From assembly GCA_049578505.1 (NCBI GenBank), contig JBAUMC010000084.1, forward strand, positions 14,205 to 78,204: a stretch of DNA of 64,000 nt, read 5' to 3'. Source of the stretch: Bacteroidota bacterium (GTDB lineage: Bacteria; Bacteroidota; Ignavibacteria; UBA10030; UBA8401). The position numbers and the translations under genes are program-made. The notes beneath the pieces are model-generated. The model was not told the origin of the DNA, made no database searches, and saw only the letters and a list, made by a program, of their open reading frames with translations. Position 1 is the first letter of the stretch, and every line of letters begins with the position of its first letter. This document shows, one piece after another, positions 604-52,795 of the stretch.

Positions 604-744
604 ACGCGATTGTGCCAGAAAACCGCAATTGAATCTACCGCAGGATAGTTAGCGCTACATCAAAACATAAGGCCAGAACCCCTGGGACTCTGGTCTTATT
701 GTAAATTTGCTCTTTCCGGATCTATCTCCTCTTGCTTACTCGTG

Positions 745-3095: not shown

Positions 3096-3204
3096 CCGCC
3101 GGCTCAGTTTATCATTACCCCTTGCCGAAGGACTCATTCGGAGGATTCCTTCGGAAGGTGGGCAAGACAATTTTTTATTCAAATTACGCCACTACTCCGC
3201 CGGC
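3096..3204. mobile_element. MITE-like element (family copy 4) with flanking 8-bp direct repeat CCGCCGGC
   Basis: The core 3104-3196 aligns with the other copies (ggctcagtttatcatt ... gattccttcggaaggtgggcaagacaattttttattcaaattacgccactact). CCGCCGGC occurs at 3096-3103 and 3197-3204. It lies in the rsmA / response-regulator divergent spacer. Confidence 0.6.
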
Positions 3205-3395: not shown

Positions 3396-4061
3396 ATGAA
3401 GAAGATTCGCATAGTGATGGCCGACGACCACGATGTTGTCCGCCTTGGAATATCAGCGTTGCTCTCGACCTTTGGGGATTTTGATGTCGTCGGCCAAGCC
3501 TCCGACGGTGAAGAAGCCGTAGCCGCAGTCAAAAAATTCACTCCCGATGTCGTTATTCTCGATCTTGAGATGCCGAAAATGTCGGGGGTTGAAGCGGCCA
3601 GAATTATTAAACTCAAATATCCCCAAACGAAAATTCTTATTCTGAGCGGCTTTGAAAACGAAAAATACGTCACACAAATTCTTAAATCGGGGGCGGGCGG
3701 CTATGTTGTGAAGAATGTAGGGAAGGAAGAGTTGGCAGACGCCATTCGCGTAGTCGCGGAAGGCAAGCGATTCTTCAGTCCGACCGTCTCACGCATTATG
3801 GTCGAAGGATTGCTCAGAAAACATTCCGCTGAACTCGAGAAGCTTTCGCATATCCGCGAGCCGTTGACAGACCTTGAAATGGAAATTCTTTCCTTCCTCA
3901 CTCAGGGGCTGAAAACCGAACAAATCGGCGAACGGCTCTCGATGAGCAAGTCAACGGTCGACAAGCATTTCACTACACTCAAGAAAAAACTCGATATTTA
4001 TGATATTGTAAACCTTGTCCAGTTTGCGAAGGACTACGGTTTCGTCGTCAACAACGAATGA
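3396..4061 (+). CDS. two-component response regulator, NarL/FixJ family (REC + LuxR-type HTH)
   Basis: The receiver domain has DD at the N-terminus, DVVILDLEMP and a conserved K. The C-terminal part LTDLEMEILSFLTQGLKTEQIGERLSMSKSTVDKH is a LuxR HTH. AAGGA lies upstream of the ATG. Confidence 0.9.
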   Translation: MKKIRIVMADDHDVVRLGISALLSTFGDFDVVGQASDGEEAVAAVKKFTPDVVILDLEMPKMSGVEAARIIKLKYPQTKILILSGFENEKYVTQILKSGAGGYVVKNVGKEELADAIRVVAEGKRFFSPTVSRIMVEGLLRKHSAELEKLSHIREPLTDLEMEILSFLTQGLKTEQIGERLSMSKSTVDKHFTTLKKKLDIYDIVNLVQFAKDYGFVVNNE

Positions 4062-5842: not shown

Positions 5843-7363
5843 TTATCGCGCTTGAACCATATCGCGAACCGTGTCGGTAATTCTTCTGAAATCGATCTTG
5901 CCGCTTCCCATTTTCGGAAGGTCGTCCAGGACCACGAACTGTTTAGGAAGGGCGATGTTCGGAAGGTGTTCCGACATACTCTTCAGGACATTTTTTTCGT
6001 CAATTTTTTGGGTAATCGCAGCAACAATCTTCGCTCCCCGCAAATGGTCCGGAACTTCCACCACGCAACACTGGACATCGCGAGGGAGGAATTTTTCCAA
6101 CACATCTTCGACTTTAATGAGGGAAACCATCTCGCCGCCGATTTTCATGAAACGCTTCAGTCTTCCTACATGCCAAAGATATCCGTCCTGGTCCATGTAC
6201 CCCATGTCCCCGGTATCGTACCATCCGTGGCGGATGCTCAGCGATGTTTGCTCGAAATCGTCGAAATACCCCTTCATGATATTGTCCCCCTTCACCAGAA
6301 TTTTTCCAATCTCGTTCACCTTGCATTCCTCCCCCGTTTCGTAATTTTCCATTCGCACCTGAACGTTTGGAATTACCTTGCCCACACTTCCCGGCCTGTT
6401 GTTGCTGTGAGTGTTGACCGTAATTGCCGGGCTTGTTTCAGTGGCTCCGTATGCCTCAAGTAGAACGATCCCGTGCTTCTCCATGAACCCCTGGCGAAGC
6501 CCTTCAGGGCATTTATCCGCGCCGGTAATCATGATACGCACGGATGAAAAATCTCCCGGTTCCGATTTATTCAAGTAACCCATGAAAAATGTCGGAGTTC
6601 CCACCATCAACGTCACTTTTTCTTCCCTGGCAATGGTGCAAATAGCTTTAAAATCAAGAGGATTCGCATATGTCACCATCGTCATCCCAAAATAAAGAGG
6701 CGCCCATAAGTTTGCGGTCTGGCCGAAAATATGGAAATACGGAAGGTTCGCAAGAAACGTATCGGTTGCCGCAAGTCCGTACACTTTTTCAAGCCCTTCA
6801 ATATTGGAGACAATATTGCGGTGGGTAAGTTGAACGGCCTTCGGGTCCTTCTCGCTTCCGCTCGTGAACAGGATAAAGAGTGTGTCGTTCTCATCTCCGC
6901 CATGAATTTTTCTTAGGATATTCTGTGCGGGGAGTTTCGATTTTAGGGCGGCTTTGATTTTATCGAACATTGACATGCCGGCCATGATATCTTCGATAAA
7001 TACCATGCCGTCGACCTTGCGGCAGTTAATTTTTTCGAGCAACGCCTTCGACGTGATGATGGTCTTGAACTCGCATTTTTTTTGAGCGTACTCGGCATTT
7101 GCCGCTGCACCGGTTGAATAGTTAACCATGACCGGGATCCTGCCGCTCATCAACGCTCCAAGAACCGATAAAGCACAACCTGCGGAGGTCGGGATCATAA
7201 TCCCGATAAACCCCTCATCGTACTTTTTGAATTTTTCGGCGAGAATAAGCGCGGCGACAAGCGCTTTCCCGTACGTAATTTTTCTGTTCATCGTCCGGTC
7301 GACGATGGCGATTTTGGTTTCGTATTGCTTGGCGATGCGGACGAATTGGTGGTGAAGAAGCAT
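5843..7363 (-). CDS. AMP-dependent synthetase/ligase (Aas-type acyl-ACP / acyl-CoA synthetase-like)
   Basis: AMP-binding motifs FTSGSEKDPKAVQLTHRNI, GYGATETS-like EAYGATETS, WYDTGDMG, and a C-terminal GKIDFR. Confidence 0.85.
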   Translation of the reverse strand: MLLHHQFVRIAKQYETKIAIVDRTMNRKITYGKALVAALILAEKFKKYDEGFIGIMIPTSAGCALSVLGALMSGRIPVMVNYSTGAAANAEYAQKKCEFKTIITSKALLEKINCRKVDGMVFIEDIMAGMSMFDKIKAALKSKLPAQNILRKIHGGDENDTLFILFTSGSEKDPKAVQLTHRNIVSNIEGLEKVYGLAATDTFLANLPYFHIFGQTANLWAPLYFGMTMVTYANPLDFKAICTIAREEKVTLMVGTPTFFMGYLNKSEPGDFSSVRIMITGADKCPEGLRQGFMEKHGIVLLEAYGATETSPAITVNTHSNNRPGSVGKVIPNVQVRMENYETGEECKVNEIGKILVKGDNIMKGYFDDFEQTSLSIRHGWYDTGDMGYMDQDGYLWHVGRLKRFMKIGGEMVSLIKVEDVLEKFLPRDVQCCVVEVPDHLRGAKIVAAITQKIDEKNVLKSMSEHLPNIALPKQFVVLDDLPKMGSGKIDFRRITDTVRDMVQAR

Positions 7364-7373
7364 CCTTTTTCTT

Positions 7374-7616
7374 TCATTGATCGCAGTGTGAAGTCAGCTC
7401 TCTGTCTATAACCTTGCTTGTATCGAAAAGCATTTGCGCCGAGCACTTGTCGCGGTAGATGCCGGCATTGAGAACTGACCGTGCGAGGTAATCACGCGGC
7501 GGTAAACAGTGGAAAAATTTAATAGACTTTCCTGTGAATGGCAAGTAATATTTTAGCGCGGATGTTTCCCGCCATGCCTTCGGTAGGGCGATGTTTGGAA
7601 CCGTGCCCAAATGCAT
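7374..7616 (-). CDS. hypothetical small protein (doubtful)
   Basis: 80-aa ORF ending 10 nt before the ligase start on the same strand. No recognisable motif. Confidence 0.25.
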   Translation of the reverse strand: MHLGTVPNIALPKAWRETSALKYYLPFTGKSIKFFHCLPPRDYLARSVLNAGIYRDKCSAQMLFDTSKVIDRELTSHCDQ

Positions 7617-7674
7617 CGTTATTTTTTGAGCTCTTCATGAATTTTCCGCGAACAGGTGTTGAACATCCTTGTCG

Positions 7675-7764
7675 AGTAGTGGCTTAATTTGAATAAAAAA
7701 TTGTCATACCCACAGTCCGAAGGGATGCCACCGGTACGCGGGAATGACAAATTGAGCCAGCACC
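7675..7764. mobile_element. MITE-like element (family copy 1)
   Basis: agtagtggcttaatttgaataaaaaattgtcataccca ... cgcgggaatgacaaattgagccagcacc. The termini are inverted relative to each other. Flanks ccttgtcg / ctttatcg match at 6 of 8 positions. Confidence 0.6.
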
Positions 7765-7795
7765 CTTTATCGGGTAGTGCTCAAGTTTGAAATAG

Positions 7796-8629
7796 TTAAG
7801 CCGCTATTTTTTGTGCTTGCCATGTCAGTAAGTCAGTCCAATTCCAGATTCGGTTTGTGATTCCGGCCTCCATCGCTGGCGTAACTCGCAGGCTTTGATG
7901 GATGCGGATGAAATTGTACGCATAAAAGTGAATAGCGATTGCCGCTTTATGGTTTTCTAACTTCTTGCTGAATGCGTTAGTGAGCCGTGTGAAGCGTCGC
8001 ATGTTCATTCTCATTGTGAGGTTCTGCCGTTCAATGTGGCTTGTACTGATTCTCTTTCGTCGGGGTTCTCCGGTGATCGGCTTTATTATTACCCTCACGA
8101 TCTGAGCCGGTGAATATCTCCGTTCGCCCTTCATATCCTCTCTGTATTCCTTGTGAACCATACCGAAATCAATATCATTCCCGAATACATCATCTACCGC
8201 GCTGTAATAGCCTGCAAAGGCATCTGTGGAGAGTTGGAAACGGTTCTTGATTCGGTATTGTAAGTCTCGCATGAACGCTGTGGCATAGTGAGCACTGCGT
8301 TTACCTACAAGAAACGACGGGACGAGTTTTGTTTCTGAATCAATGGCAACAAATACGTATTGATCTCCCTTTTCCTCGCTGTCAAACGGATTGAGTTGTT
8401 TCTGCTTTTTCTGCACATAGCTCCAAATCTCATCAACCTGGATAAAGTTCGATTGCAGGTTCACCATCTGAGTGTCGAGAATCTCTTGAGCCTTCTCTCC
8501 GGCATCGACTAACAGCTTGAGGATTGTAGGCTGGCTCACGCCCGTAATGCGGGACGTTGCCCGTACTGATTGACCCTCTGTAAGAAGCGTAAGAACCATA
8601 ACTTTCTTTTCGATTGGTAAATTGTTCAT
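7796..8629 (-). CDS. IS1-family DDE transposase (single ORF, N-terminal HTH)
   Basis: HTH SVRATSRITGVSQPTILKLL. DDE region motifs VDEIWSYVQKK, YVFVAIDSETKLV, STDAFAGY and HIERQNLTMRMNMRRFTRLTNAFSKKLENH resemble IS1 InsAB'. The stop lies 3 nt from the IR. Confidence 0.8.
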   Translation of the reverse strand: MNNLPIEKKVMVLTLLTEGQSVRATSRITGVSQPTILKLLVDAGEKAQEILDTQMVNLQSNFIQVDEIWSYVQKKQKQLNPFDSEEKGDQYVFVAIDSETKLVPSFLVGKRSAHYATAFMRDLQYRIKNRFQLSTDAFAGYYSAVDDVFGNDIDFGMVHKEYREDMKGERRYSPAQIVRVIIKPITGEPRRKRISTSHIERQNLTMRMNMRRFTRLTNAFSKKLENHKAAIAIHFYAYNFIRIHQSLRVTPAMEAGITNRIWNWTDLLTWQAQKIAA

Positions 8630-8797
8630 TGCAATGCTCCAAATTTTTAATTTGACATCGAGCCTGCAATGAACTATATTTGACTTAGGTCGGTCGCTTG
8701 TTCAACGCAGGCGATTGATTAGGGCTTATCGGGTGCTCGTAACACTCGGTAGGCCCGCTTAAACGCGGGCGAGATAAGGGTATTTTAAGCAAGTTAC

Positions 8798-9316
8798 TCA
8801 TGCACCTGTCCCTCTCGTATTCTTTTCGAGTTTTTTACCTAACCCGCTCCAACTTCTCTTGGAACGGGTTTTTGTTTGTAGATCAACCCTTCCGTCGTCT
8901 AACATCTTAAAGCGTTTCCTCTTGTCTCGCATAATAGCATTTTTGATAACAGCGTAGGGGGCTTTCTCGCTGATCTTCACTCCTTCGGCTCTCATTTTAT
9001 GAATAAGGTCTTTTTGCCTCTGTGCACCTTCGGTAATAAGAATAAGCTCAAGCGCATCGCCGATTGACTTGCCAATAAGAGAGAAGTGCTTACCCAAATA
9101 TTTCTTCTGCAATCGCTCTTTCGGTAGGCCGCTAACGCTCGCTAAATTGTCAATGAACTCGTCCATCTTCTTTACCAATTCCGCCTTCTTCAATTGCAGG
9201 GAGTTAATCTGTTCTGTCAGTTCCATAAATTCCTCGTGATAGTTATTAACGAATGCGTCCACGCCTTCCATCATTTCCGTGGCCGCTGTACGAGTGCTAT
9301 CATTTTTGGAACTCAT
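8798..9316 (-). CDS. IS passenger: coiled-coil protein with basic winged-helix-like C-terminus, function unknown
   Basis: 172 aa. The N-terminal half has heptad-like coiled-coil character (LTEQINSLQLKKAELVKKMDEF). The C-terminal part GVKISEKAPYAVIKNAIMRDKRKRFKMLDDGRVDL resembles HARE-HTH/winged-helix modules. No database check was possible. Confidence 0.5.
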   Translation of the reverse strand: MSSKNDSTRTAATEMMEGVDAFVNNYHEEFMELTEQINSLQLKKAELVKKMDEFIDNLASVSGLPKERLQKKYLGKHFSLIGKSIGDALELILITEGAQRQKDLIHKMRAEGVKISEKAPYAVIKNAIMRDKRKRFKMLDDGRVDLQTKTRSKRSWSGLGKKLEKNTRGTGA

Positions 9317-9458
9317 GGCGATCTGTTCTTTTTGTCAGTCATAATATAGTAAGTAAATACATTGTTGTCAAGTACTTTTTTGAAAATATTTTTAGTGTTT
9401 TTGAAATTGAATTTTGAACTGATTCTAAGCATATTTGCGACACCTTAAGGGGCTATTT

Positions 9459-9698
9459 ATGACTGAAAAAGATTATACAAAACTCTCCGACGTTGACCTT
9501 CAACTATTGAGTCACACAACAAACCCCGATGGCTTCAAAGCCGCCTTAACGGAAATTGATCGGCGGCAAAAAGAAGAACATGAAAAAGATCAACGCACCC
9601 AAAAAAAGATAAAACAGATAACGTTTTGGACTCTTATTGTGAGCCTTGCAATACTCGTCATTACCCTTTTTCAGCTCTTCCACATAGCGGGTATCTAA
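9459..9698 (+). CDS. IS passenger: small tail-anchored membrane protein
   Basis: The ATG at 9459 is preceded by AAGGGG. The protein is charged and soluble at the N-terminus, with one C-terminal TM helix (ITFWTLIVSLAILVITLFQLF). The ORF track starts at a TTG at 9435. Confidence 0.45.
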   Translation: MTEKDYTKLSDVDLQLLSHTTNPDGFKAALTEIDRRQKEEHEKDQRTQKKIKQITFWTLIVSLAILVITLFQLFHIAGI

Positions 9699-9821
9699 GT
9701 AAATCTCATAATACAAGCGCGAGATGTTTGCTATTCCGATAATCACTATACTAAACATCACTTTGTAAAAGATATTTGTCAAGTTTTCTATCTCCTTTCG
9801 CTTACTAATCAAGGAAGCGTC

Positions 9822-10154
9822 ATGAAAATACTTTTAACGGCATTTTTTCTACTTGTTGCGGGGTGCGCGACAACCCGCCCGTTCGACACCACAAACATGG
9901 ACATTGGGCAGAGTCAGGCATCAGTAACTGAAAGGTACGGTCAGCCCGACTATACCGCAGGGGTCTTAACACCCGATGGAAATAAACTGATACGCTATGA
10001 GTTCCGCCATGCAAACTACAATCGTACAATTTATGACCCGCCTTATGAAATCTTACAAGTACTTTTCTATAACGGTAAGGTCGTCGCGTGGGGGCGACCG
10101 GATGAAATATCATTGCGCCAAGCTGATGTAGTGATTGAACAAAGATTCAGGTGA
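9822..10154 (+). CDS. IS passenger: small lipoprotein (BamE/SmpA-OmlA-like)
   Basis: MKILLTAFFLLVAGC signal plus lipobox, with AAGGAA upstream of the ATG. The GQSQASVTERYGQPD ... YNGKVVAWG pattern resembles the SmpA/OmlA fold. Confidence 0.55.
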   Translation: MKILLTAFFLLVAGCATTRPFDTTNMDIGQSQASVTERYGQPDYTAGVLTPDGNKLIRYEFRHANYNRTIYDPPYEILQVLFYNGKVVAWGRPDEISLRQADVVIEQRFR

Positions 10155-10332
10155 AATATCTGATTCTTGTCGTGCCAAACTTTTCGGCGCGTCAATTTGT
10201 CATTTCGTTTCTGCTTCATTTTAACGGTTCCTTTCAAACTTGAGCACTACCCTTTATCGCGCTTCGTTGCTTTTTTAAGCGAATTATGTTACTTTTATCC
10301 AGTCACAAAACGCTTACCAATAATGGCGATGT

Positions 10333-11490
10333 ATGGCTGAAGAAACAAACGAACAGAAGCCGCGCGACGAATCCTTTCGTCGCCCCAGGTACCCACGTTA
10401 CCGCCGGCCGAACAGGAAACCGTCGGATCAAGTTTCGACGGAAGGGGTGCAGGCTGTTGAATCGCCCGCTGTGACCGGTTCGCTGAGTGAATCGCCGAAT
10501 GCAGGCACCGCGGCGCAAGAGATCAAAACACCCCCACAGACAAACCAGCATCGTCCGCAGAACATTGAAATTTCCGTCGTCATTCCGCTCTTTAACGAAG
10601 AGCAATCGCTGAAGGAACTTGCCGACCAATTGAAGAATACACTCGTCCGGTTCGGCGGGCGCTATGAACTTATTTTCGTCGACGACGGCAGCACTGACAA
10701 TTCTTTCCGGATGCTGCGCGACCTTCATTTCCGAAACAACCGCATCAAAGTCATTCGCTTTCGCCGGAACTACGGGAAAAGCGCTGCCTTGATGGTCGGT
10801 TTCCAAAGGGCCCAGGGCGATTACGTTGTAACGATGGATGCCGATCTTCAGGATGACCCGGCGGAAATTCCGAATCTGATCCGACAATTAAAATCGGGCT
10901 ACGATGTTGTCTCCGGATGGAAGAAAAAACGTCACGACCCGATCACGAAAACTCTCCCGTCGAAGTTTTTCAATTTTGTCACAAGCGTTATGACGGGGGT
11001 GAAAATTCACGATTCCAATTGCGGCTTGAAAGCATACCGGCGCGACGTCGTAAAAACTGTGAACGTGTATGGGGAATTGCACCGTTACATTCCCGCACTT
11101 GCGCAGTGGCAGGGGTATCGCATCGGCGAGGTCGTCGTCCAGCATCGCGCAAGAAAATACGGAAAGACAAAGTTCGGTCTGGGAAGATTTTTCAAGGGAT
11201 TTCTCGATTTGCTGACCGTTCTTTTTACAACCCGCTACATTGCCCGGCCACTCCATTTATTCGGCCTTTGGGGAATGGTGTCTGCGTTTGCCGGCCTGTG
11301 CATTGATGGATACCTTGTTGAAGAATGGGTCGTCGGTAAAACGTCGCTCAGCAATCGTCCCCTCTTTCTCGTCGGGTTGATTCTCATTATCGTCGGGATA
11401 CAGTTTGTGTCGATCGGCTTGCTTGGAGAGATGATCACCAAAGGACAACATGTTGAGAAGGAATATTCGATCAGGGAAATCATCAAATAG
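10333..11490 (+). CDS. family 2 glycosyltransferase (polyprenyl-phosphate sugar transferase type, DPM1/GtrB/ArnC-like) with an 85-aa low-complexity N-terminal extension
   Basis: The GT-A core has SVVIPLFNEE, FVDDGSTDNS and MDADLQDDP (DxD), plus two C-terminal TM helices. The first 85 aa or so are rich in Arg, Pro and Gln. Confidence 0.85.
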   Translation: MAEETNEQKPRDESFRRPRYPRYRRPNRKPSDQVSTEGVQAVESPAVTGSLSESPNAGTAAQEIKTPPQTNQHRPQNIEISVVIPLFNEEQSLKELADQLKNTLVRFGGRYELIFVDDGSTDNSFRMLRDLHFRNNRIKVIRFRRNYGKSAALMVGFQRAQGDYVVTMDADLQDDPAEIPNLIRQLKSGYDVVSGWKKKRHDPITKTLPSKFFNFVTSVMTGVKIHDSNCGLKAYRRDVVKTVNVYGELHRYIPALAQWQGYRIGEVVVQHRARKYGKTKFGLGRFFKGFLDLLTVLFTTRYIARPLHLFGLWGMVSAFAGLCIDGYLVEEWVVGKTSLSNRPLFLVGLILIIVGIQFVSIGLLGEMITKGQHVEKEYSIREIIK

Positions 11491-25780: not shown

Positions 25781-26049
25781 AGTGCTGGCTCAATTTGTCA
25801 TTCCCGCGTGCCAATGGCATCCTCCGAAGGAGTCCTTTGGACCTTTGGGAAAAGCGGGTCGAAGACTCCCAACGGGTTTATCGACCCGTAGGGTCGTTCC
25901 ACAAATCCACGATTCGTAGAATCGTAGATAGACGACTCGGCGAGAATCCAAATATTCACTTTTTACTGCACAATGGATGCCCACTTTTCCCGAAGGGATT
26001 CCTTCGGAACGTGGGCATGACATATTGTTTCCCAAATTGAGCCATCACC
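25781..26049. mobile_element. MITE-like element (family copy 2, long variant, 269 bp)
   Basis: The termini are agtgctggctcaatttg on the left and the reverse complement of ggtgatggctcaatttg on the right (15 of 17 match). The flanking 8-mers taaaaata / tgaaaata match at 7 of 8. Internal hairpins are present (tccgaagga, cccgaaggg...ccttcgg). The ORF-track entries inside it are judged spurious. Confidence 0.65.
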
Positions 26050-52705: not shown

Positions 52706-52795
52706 AGTAGCGGCTTAATTTGAATAAAAAATTGCCATGCCCACGTTCCGAATGGATGCCTTTGGCACGCGGGAATGACAAACTGAGCCAGTGCT
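52706..52795. mobile_element. MITE-like element (family copy 3) with perfect 8-bp target duplication CAATTTGA
   Basis: agtagcggcttaatttgaataaaaaattgccatgcccac ... cgcgggaatgacaaactgagccagtgct. CAATTTGA occurs at 52698-52705 and 52796-52803. Confidence 0.7.

Follow-up and report, generated by a model that had tools for sequence, protein, structure and literature searches.

We examined a 64,000-nt stretch of DNA from a Bacteroidota bacterium (hereafter the window, to the positions of which all coordinates refer), and found that positions 7773-10251 are occupied by a mobile element of 2479 bp. Taken as a whole, this unit is probably best explained as an intact transporter insertion sequence (transporter IS or tIS) of the IS1 family, the transposase of which would be regulated by an RNA. 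Indeed, as a preliminary description of this DNA had claimed, its terminal inverted repeats are perfect over 20 bp (20/20 complementary, or 21 nt when an ambiguous G/C is included), the same 8 bp is found on both sides, the gene of a 277-aa transposase in a single open reading frame (ORF) reaches to within 3 nt of one repeat, and ~1.6 kb of further DNA lies between the start of that gene and the other repeat (1602 nt, with three credible ORFs of 172, 79, and 110 aa). Both repeats start with GGTAGTG and hence conform to the GGnnnTG of IS1-type ends, as do those of ~38 relatives; also, the 8-bp duplication falls within the 8-9 bp of the IS1 family, and most of the delimited relatives are flanked by 8 bp as well. 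The terminal 20-mer occurs at only two sites in the window even when up to 3 mismatches are allowed (none of 100 shuffles reached two matches), and it also bounds related elements in 6 metagenome contigs. The window contains a single copy of the element, the G+C content of which is 43% as compared with ~48% in the flanks; a search for tRNA and tmRNA genes gave none. The features are collected in Table 1, where, as in the text, L-numbers denote the contigs or loci of relatives used for comparison.

Table 1. Features of the element and of its immediate surroundings
Feature	Position	Strand	Remark
Miniature inverted-repeat transposable element (MITE), palindromic, ~90 bp, with IS1-type tips (AGTAGTGGCTTAATTTG ... 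CAAATTGAGCCAGCACC)	7675-7764		outside the element; landmark of the insertion
Target duplication, left copy, CTTTATCG	7765-7772		also the 8 bp abutting the MITE tip
Terminal inverted repeat, transposase side, GGTAGTGCTCAAGTTTGAAA	7773-7792	+	pairs with 10232-10251
Transposase, IS1-family DDE type, single ORF of 277 aa, putative N-terminal helix-turn-helix (HTH)	7796-8629	-	Pfam PF03400
Predicted sense-transcript hairpin over the transposase AUG, Shine-Dalgarno sequence (GGAG) in its loop	8621-8677	-	arms 8621-8633 and 8665-8677
Putative promoter of the antisense RNA, TTGACA-17 nt-TATATT	8652-8680	+	11/12 sigma-70 consensus positions
Predicted small structured RNA, antisense to the ORF172-transposase transcript	8687-8772	+	fold, covariation, promoter; 3' end uncertain in the window subtype
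Hairpin A (14 bp)	8688-8720	+	
Hairpin B (14 bp)	8722-8756	+	
Small extra hairpin of the window subtype	8753-8770	+	
ORF172, 172 aa, coiled coil and winged-helix-like C-terminal part	8798-9316	-	5 homologues
Putative promoter of ORF172 (probably also of the transposase), TTGACA-17 nt-TATATT	9343-9371	-	promoter scan, strong
Divergent promoter-like site, ORF79 and lipoprotein gene, TTGTCA-16 nt-TATTTT	9365-9392	+	9/12 positions, weak
ORF79, small protein with C-terminal transmembrane helix (tail-anchored)	9459-9698	+	~470-bp block shared with L003/L004
Lipoprotein, 110 aa, lipobox LVAGC	9822-10154	+	lineage-specific cargo
Conserved subterminal stretch of the cargo-side end	10164-10231		86% over 88 nt to L086
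Terminal inverted repeat, cargo side	10232-10251	-	L001 homology stops exactly there
Target duplication, right copy, CTTTATCG	10252-10259		8/8 match with the left copy

The assignment to the IS1 family made in the preliminary description is supported by Pfam, in which the transposase matches DDE_Tnp_IS1 with 28.3 bits, above the gathering score of 24.1; in NCBIfam, transpos_IS1 is the best match as well (E 9e-18), but its 64.9 bits fall below the 100-bit equivalog cutoff, which speaks against a firm assignment. A homology search returned at least 8000 scored proteins, many of which carry the name IS1 family transposase and originate from Bacteroidota/Ignavibacteriales metagenome genomes, and the relatives on plasmids bear the same PGAP name; in the Pfam and NCBIfam searches, no IS1595 model was matched. 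Residues 7-46 gave weak HTH matches (HTH_7, E 0.011; HTH_Tnp_ISL3, E 0.013), and the sequence has no Cys pairs of a zinc finger. The catalytic profile of DDE type, the GGT..TG ends, the 8-9-bp duplication, and a transposase gene reaching one end are all shared with classical IS1 (IS1A/IS1R). Classical IS1, however, measures 768 bp and relies on a -1 frameshift between insA and insB' for the expression of its transposase, whereas the present element, at 2479 bp, contains 1.6 kb of further DNA and has one uninterrupted ORF of 277 aa without such a frameshift. The uninterrupted ORF rules out classical IS1 yet is compatible with the single-ORF subgroups, which ISfinder places in the IS1 family. 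The transposase is a distant, single-ORF member of that family, which acts on the 20-bp GGTAGTG... ends and cuts its target with a stagger of 8 bp. Even so, a length of 2479 bp (2.2-5.6 kb in the relatives) lies outside the 0.7-1.2 kb of the classical and single-ORF groups. Furthermore, IS1 is known to be controlled by the frameshift and by the InsA repressor, which binds the ends, while the present element combines a separate accessory gene with an apparently RNA-based regulation.

That accessory gene would be ORF172. It has 5 homologues in all (the fifth being P0125), and in all four of those for which contigs were retrieved it adjoins the 277-aa transposase, directly upstream and with a spacer of 168-179 nt. 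A distant homologue occupies the same position in L012 (hhalign E 2e-5), and a protein of the excisionase-type HTH_17 family does so in L008-L010 and L100. Given this constant place directly upstream of the transposase and its occupation elsewhere by a distant homologue or an HTH_17 protein, ORF172 is more likely to serve the element in an accessory or regulatory role, as a protein that binds DNA, than to be a passenger. Its AlphaFold2 model (mean predicted local distance difference test, pLDDT, of 65) consists of a long helix followed by three helices and a beta hairpin in a winged-helix-like arrangement, and its C-terminus may resemble HARE-HTH domains; no match of weight was found in Pfam, NCBIfam, PHROG, PADLOC, PDB sequences, or Foldseek.

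The spacer between ORF172 and the transposase gene, in turn, appears to hold a conserved structured RNA gene, predicted in silico, with its own promoter and on the strand opposite the transposase. The plus strand of the spacer folds with a z of -3.7, far better than the minus strand, and in RNAalifold, which recovers both helices independently, the energy of the plus strand was -44.5 kcal/mol as compared with -21.4 kcal/mol for the sense strand. A plain MAFFT alignment gave 5 compensatory pairs with 100% pairing, and among 15 sequences 19 of the 28 pairs showed double compensatory changes, 96.9% of the cells being paired as compared with 37-44% in slid controls. The promoter would set the start of the RNA next to hairpin A, near 8687, and its elements (-35 TTGAC(A/T), 17-nt spacing, and -10 TAnnTT) recur in almost every homologue, although the -35 of L017 is weak. 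In most homologues, furthermore, a U-rich tract follows directly after hairpin B, suggesting an RNA of ~75-80 nt that ends in a terminator. By using a covariance model built from the spacer RNA and iterated once, we found the motif in ~17 loci (including L006-L013, L017, L088, L092, L100, and L102), always ~40-75 nt upstream of the transposase ATG and on the opposite strand; the same search did not find it in the group of relatives with ~50% identity or in the Mesorhizobium element, both described below. In Rfam, there was no match at E <= 1 in the spacer (8630-8797) and none at E <= 0.1 in six homologous loci, and the only match in 7000-11000 of the window was sub-threshold and lay elsewhere (9577-9726).

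Several other roles of the spacer hairpins were considered and rejected. The RNA is not the leader of a divergent gene, because none of the loci has a gene downstream of it on the same strand, and the hairpins are not terminators of ORF172 on the sense strand, where they are weak and without a U-run. Nor is the RNA a mimic or guide of the repeat or target: L002 and L003 have an identical RNA with different repeats, and the flanks of the copies are unrelated. As separate observations, an ORF of 38 aa (MSNLLKIPLSRPRLSGPTECYEHPISPNQSPALNKRPT; 8684-8800, minus strand) that overlaps the ORF172 stop by ATGA lies inside the invariant spacer and could be either a chance ORF or a coupled micro-ORF; in L010, a second copy of the RNA motif (630-740, plus strand, E 1e-14) is located 5 kb from the main transposase and adjoins the start of a transposase-like gene (gttCAT), and it therefore probably belongs to a second, partial element.

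The spacer palindromes might instead be sites in the DNA, namely operators (for the transposase or for ORF172) or a hot spot of recombination, with the near-identity of the spacers being a recent recombination patch. Palindromes are indeed typical of operators, the RNA is a prediction in silico, and the spacer is 97-98% identical between elements with saturated genes, which is above the usual constraint on an RNA and fits a recent exchange. We nonetheless consider this explanation unlikely. The pairing is strand-specific, as described above, and the many G.U pairs of the plus-strand hairpins turn into C.A mismatches on the other strand; G.U-compatible changes are not needed by DNA operators. 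Also, the diverged versions of the spacer (43-62% identity) keep the helices by 19 compensatory pairs while the loops and linkers drift, and the conserved promoter is correctly placed ahead of the hairpins with the U-tract behind them.

A second hairpin is predicted in the sense transcript over the start codon of the transposase (Table 1), where a helix of 11 bp is kept in 12 relatives, with compensatory changes in 6 of the 11 pairs. A promoter scan of the element found no good promoter for the transposase itself, and the gene would be read through from the strong ORF172 promoter as part of a two-gene transcript. Its translation would then be damped by the burial of the AUG in the start-codon hairpin. 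In the opposite direction, the near-consensus promoter would fire to produce the two-hairpin RNA, which is complementary to the intercistronic stretch between ORF172 and the transposase, and the RNA might pair with the transcript, or its transcription might collide with the incoming one, so that expression of the transposase would be held down. The small RNA thus probably keeps transposition in check. Likewise, IS10 RNA-OUT and IS200 art200 are small structured RNAs with their own promoter inside the element and on the strand opposite the transposase, and IS200 with art200 also has a fold-back hairpin in the 5' untranslated region that hides the translation start. RNA-OUT and art200, however, overlap the ribosome-binding site or the start of the transposase gene, whereas the RNA predicted in the window leaves the translation start free and lies over the stretch between the two genes and over the 3' end of the upstream one, the accessory gene; it is related to RNA-OUT and art200 neither in sequence nor through Rfam.

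Several points weigh against the reading of the small RNA as a regulator of the transposase in this element. The RNA starts ~58 nt upstream of the AUG (8629) and reads away from it, leaving the ribosome-binding site of the transposase uncovered; since it overlaps only the transcript coming from ORF172, its geometry is unlike that of IS10 RNA-OUT and the mode of inhibition is uncertain. The promoters were scored on the sigma-70 consensus, but promoters of Bacteroidota type differ, and that consensus may not be the one of the host, although the hexamers matching it are conserved. The U-tract after hairpin B is poor in the window subtype (GCUUAAAC), which has a small extra hairpin in addition. 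The covariation alignments were fitted to the model, although this is partly offset by the helices from RNAalifold and the pairs in the plain MAFFT alignment. The DNA-binding role of ORF172 is drawn from a model of mediocre quality (pLDDT 65), for which no fold match reached significance, and the RNA, its ends, and its effect are all predictions.

Alternatively, the RNA might be real but no brake on the transposase, controlling instead the accessory gene, conferring immunity or incompatibility in trans, or acting in transposition. The RNA subtype tracks the type of the accessory gene and not the transposase, the RNA overlaps the 3' end of the upstream gene while the ribosome-binding site of the transposase lies outside it, and discrete RNA types are common to otherwise divergent elements, all of which would be in line with such a role. 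We regard this as quite unlikely, however, because the RNA contains no complementarity that varies with the ends or targets (L002 and L003 share the window RNA with different inverted repeats), because the co-conserved start-codon hairpin points to translational control of the transposase, and because, to our knowledge, DDE transposases of this kind do not use RNA.

With the small RNA taken as a probable brake on transposition, its distribution among relatives suggests that it is inherited together with the accessory gene. The spacer of ~190 nt is 97-100% identical among the window and L001, L002, and L003-L005, yet the transposases of the window and L002/L003 are only 68-70% identical with 42% at third codon positions (spacers, 97-98%). 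Conversely, the transposase of L088 is 97% identical to that of the window and the 20-nt terminus is the same, while the spacers are 43% identical; L092 has a spacer version of ~62% identity. The subtype of the RNA goes with the type of the accessory gene, which is ORF172-like in the window, L002, L003, L092, and L012 and of HTH_17 type in L008-L010 and L100; L088 has only a short C-terminal fragment of the accessory protein on its contig, which is HTH_17-like by eye only. The contrast between transposase and spacer in L088 thus implies that the accessory gene and the RNA form one module, which is exchanged at or near the transposase start. A recent exchange would also be the simplest reading of the near-invariant spacer in three lineages, itself only partly explained. 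One might go further and suppose that the RNA and the accessory gene are a portable specificity module, with RNA types acting as groups that cross-regulate each other in trans like plasmid incompatibility, or that the RNA acts directly in transposition, e.g., in inserting 8 bp from a resident end. We assign this idea a low probability; if true, it would mean a level of RNA involvement that is not known for DDE ISs of this family.

The whole 2479-bp unit is the mobile unit and was inserted recently, as the preliminary description had proposed. In another metagenome, the 2526-bp contig L001 is 98% identical to the element from a point within the transposase gene onward, across ORF172, ORF79, and the lipoprotein gene, and the homology ends precisely at the cargo-side repeat, beyond which the contig continues with 483 nt of unrelated sequence; on the contigs L002-L005, no cargo-side repeat was found. 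The insertion site is intergenic: in this uncultured bacterium of Bacteroidota/Ignavibacteriota type, a gene for an AMP-ligase lies on one side and a glycosyltransferase operon on the other. The proposed check for an empty site was made on orthologous loci, and the four sister genomes (L095-L098; glycosyltransferase 90-93% identical to that of the window) were found to have the two genes adjacent without the IS and without the MITE, the gap between them being 294-374 nt as compared with 2969 nt in the window. When these genomes were aligned to the joined flanks of the window, the match resumed right at the outer edges. In the same sample as the window, Logan contigs are interrupted within the transposase and within the MITE, as is typical of repeats, and exact-protein look-ups of the flanking genes returned the occupied site only. 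An inverted repeat just upstream of the transposase start (at about 8640-8750), which the preliminary description had thought might bound other copies, was found neither in the window (8630-8800, up to 3 mismatches) nor in any relative. It is therefore scarcely credible that the true IS is a transposase segment of ~1 kb, with 10232-10251 as a solo or MITE end and the three ORFs as host genes: MITEs with similar tips are indeed abundant in this genome and the 13-nt motif TCAATTTGTCATT is common to the cargo-side subterminal region (10164-10231) and the MITE, but the identical repeats and the 8-bp duplication bound the 2479-bp unit exactly, the same cargo and end recur in a different flank, the ORFs as well as the transposase are missing from the sister genomes, and none of the ~38 relatives is short.

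With three ORFs inside its repeats, the same cargo and end in a second flank, and an empty site in sister genomes, the element is a transporter IS. ISs with passenger genes inside the inverted repeats are a recognized category under this name (PMC9330008, PMC7986276). Such genes inside the repeats are the feature that our element shares with tIS, i.e., the long or single-ORF IS1 subgroups and the IS1595 family. Siguier and colleagues are said to have noted in 2015 a long IS1 subgroup in ISfinder (ISMhu11, up to ~4.6 kb). Passenger-bearing IS1 members had been called uncommon in the preliminary description, but this does not hold for the present clade, in which extra genes are the rule: all of the ~38 delimited relatives are 2.2-5.6 kb long, and none is of classical IS1 size. 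Namely, ~30 relatives with 47-54% identity were delimited among 80 genome loci (2186-4285 bp; repeats GGTAGTG..TCA.TTTGAA, most with an exact 8-bp duplication), and seven closer, RNA-bearing relatives are 2556-5597 bp, their ends coming from a wider search for inverted repeats in which the transposase was not assumed to be terminal. A plasmid of cultured Mesorhizobium loti also carries an intact member of 3370 bp with perfect 20-bp repeats and the duplication CGCTGGTG. A literature search did not find a description of the window element or of its clade in Bacteroidota/Ignavibacteriota metagenomes. As such, the element is unexceptional within its clade of IS1-family transporter ISs, which is large, poorly catalogued, and found in bacteria of soil and sediment.

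The cargo varies among the relatives; examples are P63C-type proteins, various hypothetical proteins, and, in L009, a DNA methylase joined to an Mrr-like domain. In L009 (3789-9385), the RNA-bearing relative of 5597 bp, a 524-aa protein with an N6/N4 DNA methylase and an Mrr-like nuclease domain (Pfam E 6e-45 and 3e-4) is encoded downstream of the transposase, and a second internal copy of the repeat is present at 4009; the protein looks like restriction-modification-type cargo. Most members of the ~50% group have a small basic gene ~70 nt (about 25-90 nt) inside the far end, beside the non-transposase end and in the orientation of the transposase (L022, L040, L043, L045, L046, L049, L051, L069, L073-L075, L079, L080, L082, and L084; in L099, 3075-3284). 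It encodes 60-95 aa with the motif GG.ARA..LS...R..IA..AA.ARW, which also opens the P63C-domain cargo proteins; it is annotated as "histone H1" in Mesorhizobium loti, and its position recalls that of insA in IS1. No remnant of this gene was found in the element of the window.

The preliminary description had also taken all three further genes of the element as mobile cargo and proposed to see whether they are always linked to the transposase. This applies to the lipoprotein gene, which is the only free, lineage-specific cargo: it was found in three loci only (the window, L001, and L093), and its position is filled by other genes in L003 and in L086, the latter having a similar cargo-side end with different genes. 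It does not apply to ORF172, which occurs only beside this type of transposase. The lipoprotein is a near-orphan with one close relative among 1.84 billion representatives and weak matches to DUF3192 and phrog_3135. ORF79, like the lipoprotein gene, travels with the element. The ORF79 block is a second mosaic patch, the age of which is distinct from that of the spacer patch. Window 9340-9808, including the divergent promoter region, is 90% identical to L003 1044-1512, while the neighboring genes are saturated; the same identity holds for the block in L004, with a difference of 7% in the ORF, 16-17% in its non-coding flanks, and conservative amino acid changes. No protein of the element matched a defence system in PADLOC. 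We also noticed (10155-10340) that the lipoprotein gene reads outward over the element end toward the glycosyltransferase operon, which starts 73 nt past that end. A conserved putative promoter of the operon (10263-10300), just to the right of the insertion, seems intact, so that read-through from the IS could add to the expression of the operon.

The other side of the element is bordered by a MITE that folds as a long hairpin, and the 8 bp duplicated by the IS are exactly the 8 bp directly abutting it. An insertion of the MITE and the IS as one unit was rejected, because the outer 8-mers then match in 6/8 positions as compared with 8/8 for the IS alone. The MITE family has at least two full copies in the 64 kb (7675-7764 and 52706-52791; 87%) as well as partial ones (3145-3196, 25782-25822, and 25990-26027), and its tips are closer to the GGTAGTGGCTCAGTTTGA type (L041/L046) than to the repeat of the element itself. 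The arrangement of two ends 8 bp apart was also seen in L005, L022, and L029 and as a triple tandem in L084, amounting to ~6 of 66 ends as compared with ~0.1% per end expected by chance in our own estimate. The family thus has a tendency to land next to related ends that are already resident, at a distance of exactly one target duplication. In L084 (4341-11998), a 2548-bp relative is present three times in tandem, with the same 8 bp (GAAGCTAC) between the copies and flanking the array, which is either a tandem multimer or an artefact of long-read assembly. IS30 is known to target its own repeats, and circles and tandem dimers of IS1 have repeats 6-9 bp apart; an end next to an end is common to these cases and ours, but the neighbor in the window is a MITE and not a copy of the same IS.

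In conclusion, the element described here is a clean, fully delimited reference copy, backed by a second insertion site and an empty site. A literature search did not find an antisense RNA, a start-codon hairpin, an exchange of accessory/RNA modules, or 8-bp end-targeting described for the IS1 family. An RNA supported by covariation and preceded by its own promoter, together with a start-codon hairpin, is of interest when set against the control of IS1 by frameshift and InsA, and the predicted RNA, which appears to be inherited as a swappable module with a gene for a predicted DNA-binding protein, is a candidate for a new RNA family. What would be new is the RNA-based regulatory module; the IS itself is a new member within the category of transporter IS.

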